Shown piece after piece: positions 7,242-43,334 of a stretch of 64,000 nucleotides of DNA (positions are counted from its first letter, which is position 1; every line of letters starts with the position of its first letter). The DNA comes from Escherichia phage KIT01. The notes beneath the pieces were generated by a model that did not search any database, had not been told where the DNA came from, and saw only the letters and a program-made list of their open reading frames with translations. Location: the sequence record AP019521.1; one strand, written 5' to 3'. Both the position numbers and the translations under genes were made by a program.

Positions 7242-7504
7242 TGTAGGAATCGGGCTCCTTCCAAGGCATCATCTAGGTTATCGAACTCGTCGACATAATC
7301 AACACCGCCAACTTCGTCCTTCGCATAAAGCCAATACTGTTTAAATTCATATTCAATAATAAAGTGGTCGCCTTCAATTTGAAGAGCCCCATCACCATTA
7401 AATTGAACTGCATAACCTGTAAAGCGGACATCATTCAAGAGTTCTTCTTTCATAGCAATCATTTCCAAGTTTTTATCGTAATTAGAGAGTTTTATTTTAA
7501 TCAT
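7238..7504 (-). CDS. hypothetical protein
   Basis: 88-aa ORF, ATGA overlap with downstream gene. Confidence 0.45.
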   Translation of the reverse strand: MIKIKLSNYDKNLEMIAMKEELLNDVRFTGYAVQFNGDGALQIEGDHFIIEYEFKQYWLYAKDEVGGVDYVDEFDNLDDALEGARFLQ

Positions 7505-8534: not shown

Positions 8535-8789
8535 TTACCTCAGCAGTTTGTATCCAATAAGATTTTTAATGTATTGGACATCTTTGACATCCAAATCTAA
8601 CTTAATATCTTTCAGGCGTTCAGCCAGAGTAAGAAATGTTACACGTTTCCAATTCTTAACAGGGCAGCAATAAGTTTTCGGGCCGTTAGCGATTTCAATA
8701 TTTTTATCAGTGATGGTGAGAAAAATCAGGCGCTCATCATCCAGATTAAGTGTGACGATATTTTTCATTGAATGTAATTTCAGGCTCAT
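8535..8789 (-). CDS. hypothetical protein
   Basis: 84-aa ORF. Confidence 0.45.
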   Translation of the reverse strand: MSLKLHSMKNIVTLNLDDERLIFLTITDKNIEIANGPKTYCCPVKNWKRVTFLTLAERLKDIKLDLDVKDVQYIKNLIGYKLLR

Positions 8790-8968
8790 AATTTGATTTC
8801 CTTAGCTATTGAACAAAACACGCTACGGTCACATACCATCATTGGAATATTTCTATGGTCTAGTACACGATACCATACGTCTGAATCGCTAGCAGCAATT
8901 ACACGAACCGCACGCCCATTTACCAAATAATACTGGTCGGCTTTAATTTCTTTATCTTGGATAGTCAT
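8786..8968 (-). CDS. hypothetical protein
   Basis: 60-aa ORF with GAGGAGAA RBS; first gene after a PeSL-like promoter. Confidence 0.45.
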   Translation of the reverse strand: MTIQDKEIKADQYYLVNGRAVRVIAASDSDVWYRVLDHRNIPMMVCDRSVFCSIAKEIKL

Positions 8969-8974
8969 AATGTT

Positions 8975-9026
8975 CTCCTCATGTGTTGGTAGGATAGACT
9001 ATAACACGTGAGGAGAGGAAGTAAAC
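8975..9026 (-). promoter_or_regulatory. early promoter with SD-pairing inverted repeat (PeSL-like)
   Basis: GTTTAC(9021-9026)-17 nt-TATAGT(8998-9003); arms CTCCTCATGTG(8975-8985)/CACGTGAGGAG(9005-9015). Confidence 0.5.
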
Positions 9027-15763: not shown

Positions 15764-16288
15764 TTATGCGAGAACCGTCTTTAAACGCTCTTCAAATTTC
15801 TGAAGCAGAGCTTGGCGTTCAGCTCGTTGTGATTTGTACTGCTCGATACGACCTGAAGTGAGGGCGTACTGTTCGTTTACTGATTCCCGCATGAATTCAG
15901 GAATCTCTTTACAAGCTTTGATTTCGTCAAACTTATCAATAACAGCTTGTTGTTCAGCAATCAGATTATCGAAATAAGCGATATCAGATTTAACGTTTGC
16001 CAGGTCGGATTCGGTAGGCATTAAACGTTTGTTACGTTCAGCTTGATAAGCCTGATTGGTTTCACGACTCCAGTGAAGAGTACGTTTTTTGTTAGTGTTT
16101 TTATAGAGCTCTACAATACCAACTGAATCGATGACTGCAATCCAGTTCCAACGGCTTTTGTAAATCTCTCCTCCGGATACGGTAATCTCATTACCACAAG
16201 CAACATCGTTAAAGAACTTGCTTTGTTTTTCAGATTTGAAATTACCGTTGTTGAAATTAATCAGTGAAAAAATATCTTTAGCGTTCAT
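15764..16288 (-). CDS. hypothetical protein with C-terminal coiled coil
   Basis: 174 aa; GGAGG RBS; C-terminal RQALLQKFEERLKTVLA. Confidence 0.5.
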   Translation of the reverse strand: MNAKDIFSLINFNNGNFKSEKQSKFFNDVACGNEITVSGGEIYKSRWNWIAVIDSVGIVELYKNTNKKRTLHWSRETNQAYQAERNKRLMPTESDLANVKSDIAYFDNLIAEQQAVIDKFDEIKACKEIPEFMRESVNEQYALTSGRIEQYKSQRAERQALLQKFEERLKTVLA

Positions 16289-16294
16289 GATAAC

Positions 16295-16343
16295 CTCCAG
16301 TAGTTGATAGGTCTATAGTATCATTTCTACTGGAGATGTAAAC
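16295..16343 (-). promoter_or_regulatory. early promoter with SD-pairing inverted repeat (PeSL-like)
   Basis: GTTTAC(16338-16343)-17 nt-TACTAT(16315-16320); arms CTCCAGTAG(16295-16303)/CTACTGGAG(16327-16335). Confidence 0.55.
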
Positions 16344-17762: not shown

Positions 17763-17784
17763 AAAAAGGCCCGAAGGCCTTTTA
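17763..17784 (-). terminator. rho-independent terminator (structurally bidirectional)
   Basis: AAAGGCC-CGAA-GGCCTTT hairpin flanked by A/T runs immediately after the nucleotidyltransferase stop. Confidence 0.55.
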
Positions 17785-20624: not shown

Positions 20625-20664
20625 ACCTAAACGAAAAAAGGTCCCACCGAAGTGAGACCTTTGA

Positions 20665-21048
20665 TTATTCTAACGTTAGCAAATACTTAGTCTGGTAAAA
20701 GACACCAGTGATATCGTCCAAAGTCGACTGGATGGCCTTAGGAAGGGTATCATAGATTTTATCAGATGCTTTAAGAAGCTCGTCAAGAAAATCTACCGGG
20801 TCCTTAGGCAAGTCTGAAGCAGACGGTAATGATGCTTTATATTCTTTGCCACTGAATCCAAGATATTGCTCACTAAATTGGTCCAGAGGTCCTTGAACTT
20901 CTACATAATAGAAGTCATACGCTTTGTGTCTTGCATAGCTTTTGGTTTCTAAATGGGCTGACTTAAAATAGGCTAAAGAAACCAGTAGCCAACCAATATA
21001 AGAATCCACTTCAGACCCTCGACCGGGTACGAAATCATTGAACTTCAT
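20665..21048 (-). CDS. hypothetical protein
   Basis: 127-aa ORF. Confidence 0.45.
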   Translation of the reverse strand: MKFNDFVPGRGSEVDSYIGWLLVSLAYFKSAHLETKSYARHKAYDFYYVEVQGPLDQFSEQYLGFSGKEYKASLPSASDLPKDPVDFLDELLKASDKIYDTLPKAIQSTLDDITGVFYQTKYLLTLE

Positions 21049-21328
21049 CTTCCACCTTCATTAGTTTTACATAACGCTCTCCGATGGCACGACCTTCAAT
21101 TGAGCATGTTTCTACAGTCTGACAACTTGAAATCTTCCAGGAAGCCGTAACATAAGCCCAATAGTCTTCGGAGGCCTTTACGCTAGGTCTACTCATTTGC
21201 GCATAAACAGGCATCGCACTACTAGCAAATGCATCCATCAATTTACCATTGGTATCATTTGCTAGTGAAACTGTAGGGCTTAAACATCCCGCCATAAGGA
21301 TACAAGCCGCTGTACGGAAAATATCCAT
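21035..21328 (-). CDS. secreted/periplasmic protein (rI-region family)
   Basis: 97 aa with signal-peptide-like N-terminus and Cys pairs; position just below tk. Confidence 0.4.
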   Translation of the reverse strand: MDIFRTAACILMAGCLSPTVSLANDTNGKLMDAFASSAMPVYAQMSRPSVKASEDYWAYVTASWKISSCQTVETCSIEGRAIGERYVKLMKVEDEVQ

Positions 21329-24028: not shown

Positions 24029-24487
24029 TTAAAGATAGATTACTTTCGTGCTGGTTTTACCTTCTAAACGTTTAGAGTTAACAAATGCCATACGACATTT
24101 AAGGGAATATCCTTTATCAGGATGTTTACGGTCTACGGTCATACCCAACCATAAGGTTTTATCGGTAATTTCGAGACGCAACGGGCGATACACTTTACCA
24201 GGGACAATTTCGGATTCAACATCAGGCAGAGGTTCCTGGATTAAGAATTCATGAATTTCTTTAACATGGATATGGAGTTGCTTGAATAAAGCAAAAACGT
24301 ATTTTTCGTCGATTTCACGTTGGATAGCACGGTCCAACAAGTGATTAGAGTACTTAATAAAGAAGGCTGGGACTCCGCTCTTAATGGCGGCTTTTTTGAT
24401 GGACGCATTCAGTTCACGGAATTCGGTTTCGAACTGACGACGTAATTTGTTGCGGCGGATGAATACTTCTGAATTAATTTCTGACAT
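24029..24487 (-). CDS. regB: site-specific endoribonuclease RegB
   Basis: 152 aa; EVFIRRNKLRR...KYSNHLLDRAIQREIDEKYVF...LRLEITD matches T4 RegB. Confidence 0.85.
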   Translation of the reverse strand: MSEINSEVFIRRNKLRRQFETEFRELNASIKKAAIKSGVPAFFIKYSNHLLDRAIQREIDEKYVFALFKQLHIHVKEIHEFLIQEPLPDVESEIVPGKVYRPLRLEITDKTLWLGMTVDRKHPDKGYSLKCRMAFVNSKRLEGKTSTKVIYL

Positions 24488-24494
24488 TTTGTAA

Positions 24495-24544
24495 TCTCCT
24501 GTAGATGATAGGTCTATAGTACCACGTCTACAGGAGATGTAAAC
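24495..24544 (-). promoter_or_regulatory. early promoter with 11-bp perfect inverted repeat pairing the regB SD (PeSL-like)
   Basis: GTTTAC(24539-24544)-17 nt-TACTAT(24516-24521); arms TCTCCTGTAGA(24495-24505)/TCTACAGGAGA(24527-24537). Confidence 0.6.
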
Positions 24545-26731: not shown

Positions 26732-27148
26732 TTAAGCGTAAATAGCCTTGCCGTAATGTTTGTACCAGGTAGGACGCTGTGCAATTTTTTCGTCCAAACG
26801 GGCTTGTGAAATGGCGATAGAAGCTTCGTGTGGAGTATAATCACCACGGAATTCCTGAGGAATATCACTAATGTCCTGGACCGTAGTATCCTTGATATTA
26901 AAACCACGTTTTAAACATTCCGCTATAAGCTCGATTTGACGTTTACGTAAAAACTCAAGCTTATCATAAAAGAAAGTAACATGGCCTGTACCAAGGATAA
27001 AAGTAGAGCTAATTTTAAAATCACGAACACGTTTACCATTAGCAACATGCTTACGAACTGCACCGAAAACACGTGGCAATTCACGATATTCAGCCATTAA
27101 GTGTTGGTCAGCCAATTCAGATACTAAGGTAAGGTTGATACGAGTCAT
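26732..27148 (-). CDS. denV: endonuclease V (pyrimidine-dimer DNA glycosylase) DenV
   Basis: [29 protein letters not shown]... matches T4 DenV; ATG 27148 after GGAG. Confidence 0.85.
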
Positions 27149-27177
27149 TTTAGTGTTCTCCATGTTTGTATGAGAAC

Positions 27178-27206
27178 ACTATATCACAGCTATTGTAAAA
27201 GTAAAC
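27178..27206 (-). promoter_or_regulatory. early promoter upstream of denV
   Basis: GTTTAC(27201-27206)-17 nt-TATAGT(27178-27183); GTGTTCTC/GAGAACAC inverted repeat in leader. Confidence 0.5.
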
Positions 27207-27511: not shown

Positions 27512-27563
27512 ATGTTTCCTTAAAGGTAAATATTTTAATTGGTATGTTCAAGTAACTGTAGAT

Positions 27564-27592
27564 ATACTATCACAATTCTAGGAGATGTAAAC
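27564..27592 (-). promoter_or_regulatory. early promoter upstream of ipII-like gene
   Basis: GTTTAC(27587-27592)-17 nt-TAGTAT(27564-27569). Confidence 0.45.
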
Positions 27593-27991: not shown

Positions 27992-28472
27992 ATGCTTTCC
28001 AAGTACCTGTTTTAAATGTAGAAATCACGCGCTTAGCACGATTAGGAGTTTGTTTATACCAACGGGATTGAGCCAGGTTAACTGCCGCATCGTTCCAACG
28101 TTTCTGTCGGAGCATACGTAAAGAGTTAGTGAACCCTGCTACACCTGCTTCACCCATTTGGAAGACCATGTTAATTAAAGCACAACGACGAACTTCGTCC
28201 AATACATCGTAAACAGGTTTCAATTTAGGATTACGCAGAATAGCTCTACGAGCATTTTCAACCGATCGGTTAAAGAGTTGTTCAGCTTCAGCCATAGTAA
28301 TACGTCCATTGCAAACTCGACCCATAAGCTTATCAAGTTCAGCCCGAGCAACATCTTTAGAAGGATTCTTAGTAATCAATTGGCCAATACCAATAGTCCA
28401 ATAACCTTCGGTGTCTTTATAAAGATTTAAATCAAGACCTTCGTCTTGACGTAACATATCAAAAATATCCAT
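27978..28472 (-). CDS. e: lysozyme (endolysin) gp e
   Basis: 164 aa; [35 protein letters not shown]... matches T4 lysozyme. Confidence 0.9.
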
Positions 28473-28474
28473 AA

Positions 28475-28502
28475 TACCTCCTGAGTATAGGAGGTATTTA
28501 TA
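28475..28502 (-). promoter_or_regulatory. SD-sequestering hairpin plus late promoter TATAAATA for gene e
   Basis: palindrome TACCTCCT-GAGTAT-AGGAGGTA (28475-28496) contains the e RBS; minus-strand TATAAATA at 28495-28502. Confidence 0.55.
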
Positions 28503-30713: not shown

Positions 30714-30748
30714 AGGTCTATAGTATCACACCTATAGACCTTGTACAC
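30714..30748 (-). promoter_or_regulatory. early promoter with 10-bp perfect inverted repeat (PeSL-like)
   Basis: GTGTAC(30743-30748)-17 nt-TACTAT(30720-30725); arms AGGTCTATAG(30714-30723)/CTATAGACCT(30732-30741). Confidence 0.5.
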
Positions 30749-35653: not shown

Positions 35654-35689
35654 GGGCTCATAATATCTTAATCATGAGCCCATGTAAAC
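35654..35689 (-). promoter_or_regulatory. early promoter (PeSL-like)
   Basis: GTTTAC(35684-35689), -10 near 35660-35666; GGGCTCAT/ATGAGCCC arms. Confidence 0.45.
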
Positions 35690-35962: not shown

Positions 35963-36020
35963 CTCCTTCACACTGTTGTTTTGATAGGTCTATAGTATCA
36001 TGTTTAAAGGAGGTGTAAAC
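35963..36020 (-). promoter_or_regulatory. early promoter (PeSL-like)
   Basis: GTTTAC(36015-36020)-17 nt-TACTAT(35992-35997); CTCCTT/AAGGAG arms. Confidence 0.5.
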
Positions 36021-36079
36021 AACTTTGTGAAATTATTTTTAGTTTAAACCCCCAAAAAGGAGACCGAAGTCTCCTTTCA

Positions 36080-37756: not shown

Positions 37757-37831
37757 TGGTATCCCGCCCTGGGATCGAACCAGGACCGCAAACTTAGAAG
37801 GATCGTATGCTATCCATTACACCAGCGGGAC
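37757..37831 (-). tRNA. tRNA-Arg (anticodon UCU)
   Basis: hand-folded cloverleaf: acceptor GTCCCGC/GCGGGAT, T-arm CCTGG-TTCGATC-CCAGG, anticodon loop CTTCTAA, encoded ACCA 3' end. Confidence 0.7.
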
Positions 37832-37836
37832 GTAGT

Positions 37837-37913
37837 TGGTGACCCAGACCAGATTTGAACTGGTAACCTTTCCCTTATGAGGGGACTGCTGCTAACCATT
37901 GAGCTACAGGGCC
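37837..37913 (-). tRNA. tRNA with CAU anticodon (Met, or Ile if lysidine-modified)
   Basis: hand-folded: T-arm ACCAG-TTCAAAT-CTGGT, anticodon loop CTCATAA, encoded CCA; 5 nt from tRNA-Arg. Confidence 0.65.
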
Positions 37914-38185: not shown

Positions 38186-38297
38186 AAACACCTCAAATAA
38201 AATTAAGTAAAGTAAGTTTGATTAATAGACTTTGTCTATTATGAAAGGTTCTTTGAGGGAAGAACCTTTGGTAATAGAGGGTATTAATGATAGAGTA

Positions 38298-39243: not shown

Positions 39244-39279
39244 TTTATTCTCCAATCACTCATTTGTTTTGATAGGGCT

Positions 39280-39309
39280 ATAGTACCATCACTAAAGCCC
39301 GTTGTAAAC
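39280..39309 (-). promoter_or_regulatory. early promoter (PeSL-like)
   Basis: GTTTAC(39304-39309), -10 near 39280-39286; GGGCT/AGCCC arms. Confidence 0.45.
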
Positions 39310-39841: not shown

Positions 39842-39876
39842 AGGTCTATAGTATCATGCCTATAGACCTTGTAAAC
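39842..39876 (-). promoter_or_regulatory. early promoter with 10-bp perfect inverted repeat (PeSL-like)
   Basis: GTTTAC(39871-39876)-17 nt-TACTAT(39848-39853); arms AGGTCTATAG(39842-39851)/CTATAGACCT(39860-39869). Confidence 0.55.
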
Positions 39877-42852: not shown

Positions 42853-43289
42853 CCTAATTTTTTCAGTGAGTTTTCGGTAATCAATCTGAAATTAATTCCC
42901 ATTTTATCTGCTGTAGCTTTAGCAGCTTTCCATTTATCTTTATTTACACTCCATGTATAATGTTCGTTGATATATCTCTTTTTAGCAGCTGTAGTCATTT
43001 TAGCAGGTGCCGCTGGAGGATGGGTTTCTTTAAAAGGTTTGACTTCGAAAAAGAATTGTTGACCATTATCGAACTTCACCCAGAAGTCCATAAAATACCG
43101 ACGTTTCTTTCCATCAGCGTTACTAAAATATGGAATCACAACCTCTTCCGAGTTCCACTGGACGACATTAGGGTGGTTGTCAAGCCAACGCATAAGCCAT
43201 GCTTCCCAAGAGGAACGATATTGGATTTTCTTCCAGTCACCTTTATATTTTTGTAAGTTTGTAGGTTTAAATTTCCCTGAGTAGGCCAT
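42840..43289 (-). CDS. 4: head completion protein gp4
   Basis: 149 aa; late promoter 26 nt upstream; divergent from gene 53. Confidence 0.8.
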
Positions 43290-43299
43290 AGTGCCTCCT

Positions 43300-43322
43300 T
43301 ATAAATATTAATATTATTTATA
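43300..43322. promoter_or_regulatory. divergent late promoters for genes 53 (plus) and 4 (minus)
   Basis: TATAAATA at 43300-43307 on plus strand and at 43315-43322 on minus strand. Confidence 0.6.
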
Positions 43323-43334
43323 CTCGGAGGCCCT

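Follow-up and report, generated by a model that had tools for sequence, protein, structure and literature searches.

A sigma-70 early promoter inside a Shine-Dalgarno-hiding hairpin at regB and three other early genes of Escherichia phage KIT01: a candidate device for transcript-specific translation

The regB gene of Escherichia phage KIT01, which encodes an endoribonuclease, is preceded by an early promoter whose −35/−10 spacer holds one arm of an inverted repeat, and the other arm of this repeat contains the Shine-Dalgarno (SD) sequence of the gene. We studied this element, and others like it, in a 64,000-nt stretch of the KIT01 genome (AP019521.1), hereafter the window, which represents a Dhakavirus (a T4-type phage resembling JS10 and JS98) with its early genes on the minus strand. 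T4-type phages match a 2-kb query around the regB site at 91%–96% identity, and the order vs.4, regB, vs.1 given in the annotation of JS10 is found again on the minus strand of the window. This strand carries 18 early promoters of the form GTTTAC-N17/18-TAnnnT, many of which continue into a conserved start region, AGACCTATCA, and many of which have TACTATAGACCTATCA in common.

Read in the sense of the mRNA, the regB leader runs from the −35 hexamer GTTTAC through ATCTCCTGTAGA, CGTGG, the −10 hexamer TACTAT, AGACCTATCA, TCTACAGGAGAT, and TACAAA to the ATG (Table 1). An inverted repeat, perfect over 11 bp, had originally been predicted for this site, its arms lying in the −35/−10 spacer and on the ribosome-binding site (RBS). 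Checking base by base bore out the placement of both arms, the second of which lies on the SD; the repeat is also real, but its length is 12 bp (24494–24505 with 24527–24538), with 21 nt between the arms. The sequence TCTCCTGTAGA occurs once per strand, at 24495–24505 on the plus strand and as its reverse complement at 24527–24537. Taken alone, such a repeat is not rare: by our own estimate, about 0.2 perfect 12-bp repeats with arms ≤45 nt apart are expected in 64 kb, and a lone one is therefore not very improbable as a product of chance. Where the arms are placed, and how often the arrangement recurs, go far beyond what chance would give (see below).

Table 1. Coordinates of the promoter-associated hairpins, their sequence elements, and the genes that they precede in the 64,000-nt window
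Feature	Coordinates	Strand	Details
regB coding sequence	24029..24487	-	152 aa; ATG 24487-24485; phrog_1323 endoribonuclease, E 4e-71; regB in annotated relatives
regB -35 hexamer GTTTAC	24539..24544	-	T4-type early consensus; element present in all regB orthologs
regB hairpin 5' arm ATCTCCTGTAGA	24527..24538	-	inside the 17-nt -35/-10 spacer, upstream of the local start; paired in the read-through minimum free energy fold
regB -10 hexamer TACTAT	24516..24521	-	in the hairpin loop; start region AGACCTATCA next
regB hairpin 3' arm TCTACAGGAGAT	24494..24505	-	includes SD GGAG 24499-24496
nrdC.8-like coding sequence	15764-16288	-	open reading frame list and profile match
nrdC.8-like site	16293..16343	-	-35 16343-16338; 5' arm ATCTCCAGTAG 16337-16327; -10 16320-16315; 3' arm and SD CTACTGGAGGT 16303-16293; ATG 16288
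55.6-like coding sequence	8786-8968	-	60 aa; open reading frame list and profile match
55.6-like site	8974..9026	-	-35 9026-9021; 5' arm TCTCCTCACGTG 9016-9005; -10 9003-8998; 3' arm and SD CACATGAGGAGA 8985-8974; ATG 8968
denV coding sequence (endonuclease V)	26732-27148	-	phrog_1183
denV site	27151..27206	-	-35 27206-27201; -10 TATAGT 27183-27178; 5' arm TAGTGTTCTC 27181-27172; 3' arm and SD GAGAACACTA 27160-27151; ATG 27148
Class B hairpin	39842..39869	-	AGGTCTATAG 39869-39860 (spacer) with CTATAGACCT 39851-39842 (-10 box, +1); fold z -3.8; SD uninvolved
Class B hairpin, same cassette as 39842	30714..30741	-	arms 30741-30732 and 30723-30714; SD uninvolved
35963 site, promoter 36020	35963..36012	-	CTCCTT 36012-36007 / AAGGAG 35968-35963; intrinsic terminator immediately upstream
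Gene e, positive control	28470..28502	-	late promoter TATAAATA 28502-28495 overlaps 5' arm AATACCTCCT 28498-28489; 3' arm and SD AGGAGGTATT 28482-28473; ATG 28472; -14.1 kcal/mol

The same geometry had been claimed for five further sites, and it holds at three of the six sites in all: at regB, at 16295 in front of the nrdC.8-like gene (nine Watson-Crick pairs, or 11 when one G·U and one A-U are added), and at 8975 in front of the 55.6-like gene (12 positions pair, with one C·A mismatch in the mRNA sense). We refer to hairpins of this kind as class A, in which the spacer holds the 5' arm and the 3' arm covers the SD, and include in it the hairpin of denV, a fourth SD-occluding promoter hairpin that was absent from the earlier list; here the 5' arm TAGTGTTCTC extends from the last 4 nt of the −10 box through approximately +1, and its partner GAGAACACTA covers the SD. 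In class B, the 5' arm likewise lies in the spacer, and the 3' arm covers the −10 box and the start region, so that the SD is unpaired. The sites at 30714 and 39842 are of this second class: their perfect 10-bp repeats are real, but the downstream arm CTATAGACCT lies on the −10 box and start, and the unpaired SD is found ∼25 nt beyond. At 35963, a helix of 6 bp (8 with G·U pairs) over a 38-nt loop, with a fold z-score of −0.25, is at the level of chance, and its read-through penalty is +1.0 kcal/mol (see below). The claim that arm sequences covary among the listed sites is not supported for the list as a whole, which mixes hairpin classes. A compensatory double change, T/A to A/T, does separate the regB and nrdC.8-like cassettes. 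Class B hairpins occur at six of the 18 early promoters of the window (39876, 30748, 39309, 35689, 35231, and 7899), including those at 39275–39300 (promoter 39309) and 35654–35681 (promoter 35689). The cassettes of promoters 39876 and 30748 differ very little between the spacer and ATG+3, and promoters 39309 and 39876 are related by a compensatory change (GGGCT/AGCCC vs. GGTCT/AGACC).

Read-through RNA was folded from the −35 hexamer to the start codon and the local leader from about +1, with start sites placed by the positions of the hexamers. Because the 5' arm lies upstream of the start site so placed, transcripts of the local promoter would lack it, as had been proposed. The expected difference between the two RNAs is seen in the predicted folds: the long RNA forms SD-burying hairpins of −19 to −20 kcal/mol at regB (−20.1 kcal/mol, z −3.6), the nrdC.8-like gene (−19.5 kcal/mol, z −4.2), and the 55.6-like gene (−19.3 kcal/mol, z −3.9), compared with −1.4, −2.2, and −2.3 kcal/mol, respectively, for the local leaders, and the read-through fold at denV is predicted at −14.5 kcal/mol (z −2.2). 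At all four sites the minimum free energy fold buries the whole SD, and the hairpins remain when folded in longer context. The mean probability that the SD is unpaired discriminated poorly, because pairing with the coding region lowers the values of local RNAs too, and we replaced it by the free energy required to open the RBS from −16 to +5, taken as the value for read-through RNA (with 150 nt of upstream context) minus that for local RNA. This extra opening cost is +9.7 kcal/mol at regB, +12.1 at the nrdC.8-like gene, +17.6 at the 55.6-like gene, and +10.6 at denV. The comparison with T4 gene e that accompanied the original prediction is apt, for the window has an e-type hairpin of its own, with a similar cost (+10.3 kcal/mol). 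The gene 4 homolog (head completion; 43287–43331, minus strand) also has a hairpin of the e type, reading GCCTCC ... TATAAATA ... GGAGGC, with the late promoter in the loop and the SD occluded, and a cost of +12.2 kcal/mol. The sites that do not fit the pattern have costs of +1.0 (36020), +2.2 (39876), and +4.9 kcal/mol (30748).

An important constraint on these pairings is provided by comparison of each spacer with the SD region of its own gene (cognate) and with those of other genes (non-cognate). Non-cognate pairs already reach 4–7 bp, and many spacers start with (A/T)TC(C/T)TC, as would be expected if pyrimidine-rich, CTCC-like spacers met purine-rich SDs by chance; nevertheless, cognate pairing is stronger than non-cognate across the 18 window promoters (permutation p = 3.5e-4), with the signal coming from regB (−19.5 kcal/mol), 16343 (−17.6), 9026 (−18.1), and, weakly, 36020. 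When the 66 putative minus-strand genes that have an SD are ranked by the strength of SD-occluding pairing, early promoters account for four of the top five (Fisher p = 0.017), and the fifth is that of gene 4, with the late promoter TATAAATA in its loop. The effect is limited to a subset of promoters, as the SD-occluding energies of all promoter-associated genes do not differ significantly from those of the rest (Mann-Whitney p = 0.23). A scan of the T4 early regions yielded 38 candidate early promoters, and a cognate duplex at least as stable as −15 kcal/mol occurs at seven of them (alc, ndd.4, nrdC.8, alt.-3, regB, denV, and motB.2), compared with 2% of non-cognate pairs (p ∼1e-5); in the predicted folds of these seven, the loop holds the −10 box and the stem holds the SD. 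Many of the remaining T4 early promoters bear class B hairpins, which are frequent there (e.g., at T4 coordinates 57990, 20612, 65799, and 73939).

Orthologous loci supply the second line of evidence. The regB loci of 42 viral contigs and T4 yielded 27 distinct arm pairs in ∼15 lineages, and an SD helix of 8–15 bp is present in 10 of the 15, including T4. The core of the helix at the SD is constant, and the extension on the loop side is entirely different between lineages (TGTAG/CTACA, TTTTAGT/ACTAAAA, ATTTG/CAAAT, TCTTTATG/CATAAAGA, TCTAGTTG/CAACTAGA, TGTAAG/CTTACA, and, in T4, UCUUGAC/GUUAAGA). In T4 regB, UUUUCCUCUUGAC and GUUAAGAGGAGAA form 13 pairs including two G·U, and the full fold extends further (−21.6 kcal/mol, z −4.9). 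Cognate pairing across the regB loci averages −14.4 kcal/mol vs. −8.8 kcal/mol for non-cognate pairing, a difference reached in none of 200,000 permutations (p < 5e-6). In an ungapped alignment anchored solely on the TCC/GGA core (a plain MAFFT version misregistered the GGAG cores), 11 of 15 pairs have changes on both sides, and the covariation score is 0.300, vs. 0.138 in shuffles (none of 500 reach the observed value) and 0.08–0.15 with slid partners. At denV, the SD pairs with a segment upstream of the start site in all ∼15 T4-like lineages (p < 5e-6), and the location of this segment varies between the spacer and the −10/+1 region; judged from these predicted pairings, the constant property is occlusion of the SD by sequence missing from the local transcript, and not the position of the hairpin. 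One relative retains the 55.6 helix via two G·U pairs and another has different arms, GATAG/CTATA, and the T4-type nrdC.8 arms are GUUCCUCUGU/ACGGAGGAAC. The comparison of orthologs thus favors the idea: regB, denV, and nrdC.8 keep their pairing while the arm sequences differ.

Some of these cassettes are found at more than one gene. The T4 denV promoter cassette (GTTTACATCTCCTGTAG...TACTATAGACCTATCAACTACAGGAGA; 7356–7420 of sequence L020) has the same arms as the window regB cassette (24494–24544). The DenV protein of the window is 97% identical to T4 DenV, yet the promoter and hairpin in front of it are different, and promoter/SD cassettes appear, from such comparisons, to have been exchanged between genes. 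The sharing of arms between T4 denV and window regB fits the idea of modular shuffling proposed for early promoter/stem-loop (PeSL) elements. A separate case is promoter 27592 (27540–27592, minus strand), which resembles a decayed cassette of the regB type, with spacer ATCTCCTAGA and leader ATCTACAG|TTAC; its GGAGA has been lost, and the real SD (AAGGAAAC) lies ∼40 nt farther along. The denV loci of relatives that are jumbo phages of ∼350 kb have the classical PeSL layout, in which the −35 element TTGAC lies within a G/C-rich, terminator-like stem (AAAGGGTTGACTTCGGTCAGCCCTTTTT) followed by TATAAT, with no occlusion of the SD.

The observation from which we started is therefore partly confirmed: it is real and significant at denV and regB and for two more of the cited sites, whereas the other three cited sites do not fit. 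Its interpretation is partly supported and passes its own comparative test; the mechanism is one that we infer from geometry, predicted folds and energies, and covariation among paralogs and orthologs. We assign a probability of roughly 0.6 to transcript-specific translational gating at regB, the nrdC.8-like gene, the 55.6-like gene, and denV, brought about by a sigma-70 early promoter inside an SD-hiding hairpin. A polymerase that starts locally, ∼7 nt beyond the −10 box, would make a transcript without the upstream arm, with a short open leader and a free RBS. Transcripts from upstream promoters would carry both arms, and a stem of 10–12 paired positions (−14 to −20 kcal/mol) would bury the SD and leave the gene untranslated, so that the protein would be made solely while its own early promoter fires. 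Two side effects may be expected: the paired GGAG at the junction would be shielded from RegB in polycistronic RNA, because RegB needs single-stranded GGAG and is inhibited by structure, and the untranslated read-through RNA would possibly be exposed to Rho.

The surroundings of the four sites would allow transcription to enter from upstream. The stop codon of the upstream gene lies 1–6 nt from the −35 hexamer in every case, and a terminator scan flagged nothing beside the regB and nrdC.8-like promoters and only a weak hairpin, within coding sequence, at 9026. With the stop codon so close to the −35 hexamer and no convincing terminator between, any upstream transcription would be expected to run through. 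The stems at the SD-occluding sites do not themselves have the form of intrinsic terminators, in which a U-run directly follows a G+C-rich hairpin; they lack a following U-tract (tails UUACAAAAUG, GUUAUCAUG, and ACAUUAUG). Strong intrinsic terminators with UUCG loops are found at 20637–20662, 17764–17783, and ∼36030–36055 on the minus strand, directly upstream of promoters 20624, 17743, and 36020, and these three promoters have a weak SD helix or none. A role of the stems as RNase III sites was considered and rejected on general knowledge, since stems of 10–15 bp are below the typical substrate length.

Several points weigh against gating. The SD-occluding form is found at only four of 18 early promoters in the window and seven of 38 in T4, and many other early promoters have an SD-sparing hairpin, so that promoter-straddling hairpins may have a more general role. 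A strong SD helix is missing from five of the 15 regB lineages; in two of these the SD helix is short, and an inner hairpin between the spacer and the −10 region closes it. Strong SD helices are found more often where no intrinsic terminator lies upstream, but this is a trend without significance (one of 11, the sole positive being the weak coding-sequence hairpin at 9026, vs. nine of 45; Fisher p = 0.67). Wobble pairs give no significant preference for the transcribed sense, as seven helices are better in the sense and 10 in the antisense orientation (Wilcoxon p = 0.70), and the C·A mismatch of the 55.6-like helix falls in the sense strand. Some coupled translation could also occur if a ribosome that terminates at the upstream stop codon, 8–13 nt away from the 5' arm, opened part of the helix. 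Finally, where transcripts start in KIT01, whether read-through RNA exists and in what amount, and how translation responds are all deduced from sequence.

The alternative that survives best, although we regard it as unlikely, is that these are generic promoter-straddling stem-loops of the PeSL type, which attenuate or end read-through transcription, protect the 3' end of the upstream mRNA, or provide homology for shuffling, with the pairing of the SD being incidental. PeSL elements (Arbiol et al. 2010; Comeau et al. 2014) combine a strong early promoter with a stem-loop and end in an SD and start codon, are found at many small early genes, and are linked to the shuffling of modules; the window has the repeated sigma-70-type early promoters ending in an SD and start codon, 18 of them on the minus strand. 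In the accessible text of these papers, the stem-loops are placed between or over the −35 and −10 elements, upstream of the −35 element, or just before the start, are often G/C-rich, and have been interpreted and assayed as terminators or attenuators (PMC2839356, PMC4122927), and those of T4 and PST are drawn upstream of the promoter; at positions like the present ones, they have been read both in this way and as recombination cassettes (PMC2839356). The class B hairpins at 39842, 30714, 39309, and 35689 match the described positions. The frequency of SD-sparing hairpins in the window and in T4, the compensatory change between promoters 39309 and 39876, the mobility of the cassettes (the arms shared by T4 denV and window regB, and the likeness of 39876 and 30748), and the lack of strong hairpins at the three promoters preceded by true terminators (36020, 20624, and 17743) would all be explained in this way, and attenuation without a U-tract or via Rho remains compatible with the result of the terminator scan.

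However, the four SD-occluding sites differ from PeSL elements in having the 3' arm in the transcribed leader, on the SD, and the accessible text of the PeSL papers (PMC2839356, PMC4122927) contains no account of a stem that ends on the SD and acts in translation. The stems have no U-tract and were not flagged as terminators. Across the regB, denV, and nrdC.8 lineages the SD stays paired despite changes in arm sequence and in the position of the 5' arm, which points to selection on SD pairing itself. The SD-occluding form is present in 10 of 15 regB lineages, compared with ∼20% of early promoters genome-wide, and the opening penalties are on a par with those of the e-type controls. Transcript-specific gating would account for these features, and we prefer it for the four sites.

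A more improbable alternative is that the chief benefit of the helix is to keep RegB away from the GGAG of the SD in read-through RNA, sparing long early and middle transcripts from cleavage, with the loss of translation being tolerated. The targets of RegB are intergenic SDs with single-stranded GGAG, secondary structure readily inhibits the enzyme, and 16 structured GGAG sites of T4 are resistant (PMC1702504); GGAG or GGA is present in all of the helices, and the SD of regB itself is a known target (PMC3014915). Such protection is compatible with gating and does not exclude it. Yet four to six pairs would suffice to hide the motif, whereas the stems have 10–15 bp and often reach toward the AUG, and the late-promoter versions at e and gene 4 share the design without a RegB rationale.

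A role at the level of DNA is very unlikely. Here the spacer would tune promoter strength, form a cruciform, or bind a dimeric factor, for example in the shut-off of early promoters, the mechanism of which is incompletely understood (PMC3014915). The location of the 5' arm within the promoter itself and a wobble asymmetry that does not favor sense RNA are in keeping with this, but a shared protein that recognizes one sequence is hard to reconcile with arms that remain complementary and yet are wholly different from gene to gene and from lineage to lineage. Moreover, the downstream arm is consistently the SD, an RNA-level signal 12–20 nt inside the transcribed region, and several helices depend on G·U pairs that exist in the sense RNA only (two in T4 regB, two in locus L074, and also in T4 ndd.4). 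Chance complementarity, scarcely credible as a general account, stands only for 35963, which it explains fully, and is rejected for regB, the nrdC.8-like gene, the 55.6-like gene, and denV by the permutation tests, by covariation within the part of the stems outside the SD, and by fold z-scores of −3.6 to −4.9.

The principle of transcript-specific sequestration of an RBS is known from T4 genes e, soc, and 49 and I-TevI, and also from I-TevII, I-TevIII, segB, and mobE of Aeh1, with a late promoter in the hairpin (PMC3014915). The hairpin of T4 gene e is reported to lower lysozyme synthesis ∼100-fold (Uzan and Miller review, PMC3014915), and the genes regulated by such sequestration were all late genes in the account of Edgell et al. 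2010 (PMC2988022). As in e, soc, 49, and I-TevI, the helix at the early sites pairs the SD and/or the AUG with upstream sequence, and a promoter in or beside the 5' arm is predicted to yield a translated RNA without the arm while the longer RNA is silent; gene e and gene 4 of the window have the late version, on the same energy scale as the early sites. The known cases differ in that they have the gp55-dependent late promoter TATAAATA and are late genes, whereas the present ones are early genes in which the internal promoter, GTTTAC-N17-TA(C/T)(T/A)(A/G)T, is a sigma-70 promoter of the T4 early type; the predicted outcome is accordingly early-only rather than late-only translation. We found no description of SD sequestration with an embedded early promoter in the accessible literature, and an earlier mention in older T4 papers is possible. 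We rate the early-promoter version as a variant of an established device and not as categorically new.

Two other systems bear on the comparison. Production of RegB is tightly limited, and RegB cleaves the GGAG of its own SD (PMC3014915). That autoregulation involves the same gene and the same GGAG, and likewise keeps RegB synthesis brief; it works in trans, on single-stranded transcripts of the regB promoter, whereas control by the hairpin would be in cis, with the GGAG of the read-through RNA being closed to RegB. The T-even internal-protein loci (Repoila et al. 1994), as reported in the accessible text of Arbiol et al. 2010, have T4 early promoters with AT-rich stem-loops of variable size between small genes, like the present sites, but are discussed there as recombination motifs. 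The covariance models of Rfam 15, applied to the whole window at their gathering scores, identified only two tRNAs (37760–37913), and the hairpins have no family match. Apart from the promoter hairpins, an inverted repeat that is perfect over 11 bp, ACTAGCAAATG/CATTTGCTAGT, its arms 24 nt apart, lies at 21221–21266 within the minus-strand open reading frame 21035–21328, and a 19-nt inverted repeat (89% complementary, 6-nt loop) lies at 38235–38278, in an intergenic gap close to the tRNA cluster.

If gating by these hairpins is real, a classic control device of T4 extends from late to early promoters, and a −35/−10 spacer can double as an anti-Shine-Dalgarno arm. Gating would account for the restriction of toxic or dose-sensitive early proteins (for example, the RNase RegB and endonuclease V) to the opening minutes of infection despite read-through transcription, and at regB it would add a third layer of control beside promoter shut-off and self-cleavage. 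The annotation and engineering of T4-like therapeutic phages would be affected, as moving or deleting a promoter would alter translation downstream and transcript abundance alone would not be predictive. Because regB, denV, alc, and nrdC.8 of T4 carry the same structure, the idea is directly testable in T4. More tentatively, there may be a general, hitherto undescribed design rule of T4-like phages by which a subset of early genes, some of them for nucleases and host takeover (e.g., regB, denV, and alc), is translationally autonomous: read-through RNA would be silent, resistant to RegB at the junction, and possibly terminated by Rho, units would be insulated without a classical terminator, and expression would be a strict immediate-early pulse. 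Such a rule, if it holds, would be the early-phase counterpart of the late-only gating at e, soc, and 49.

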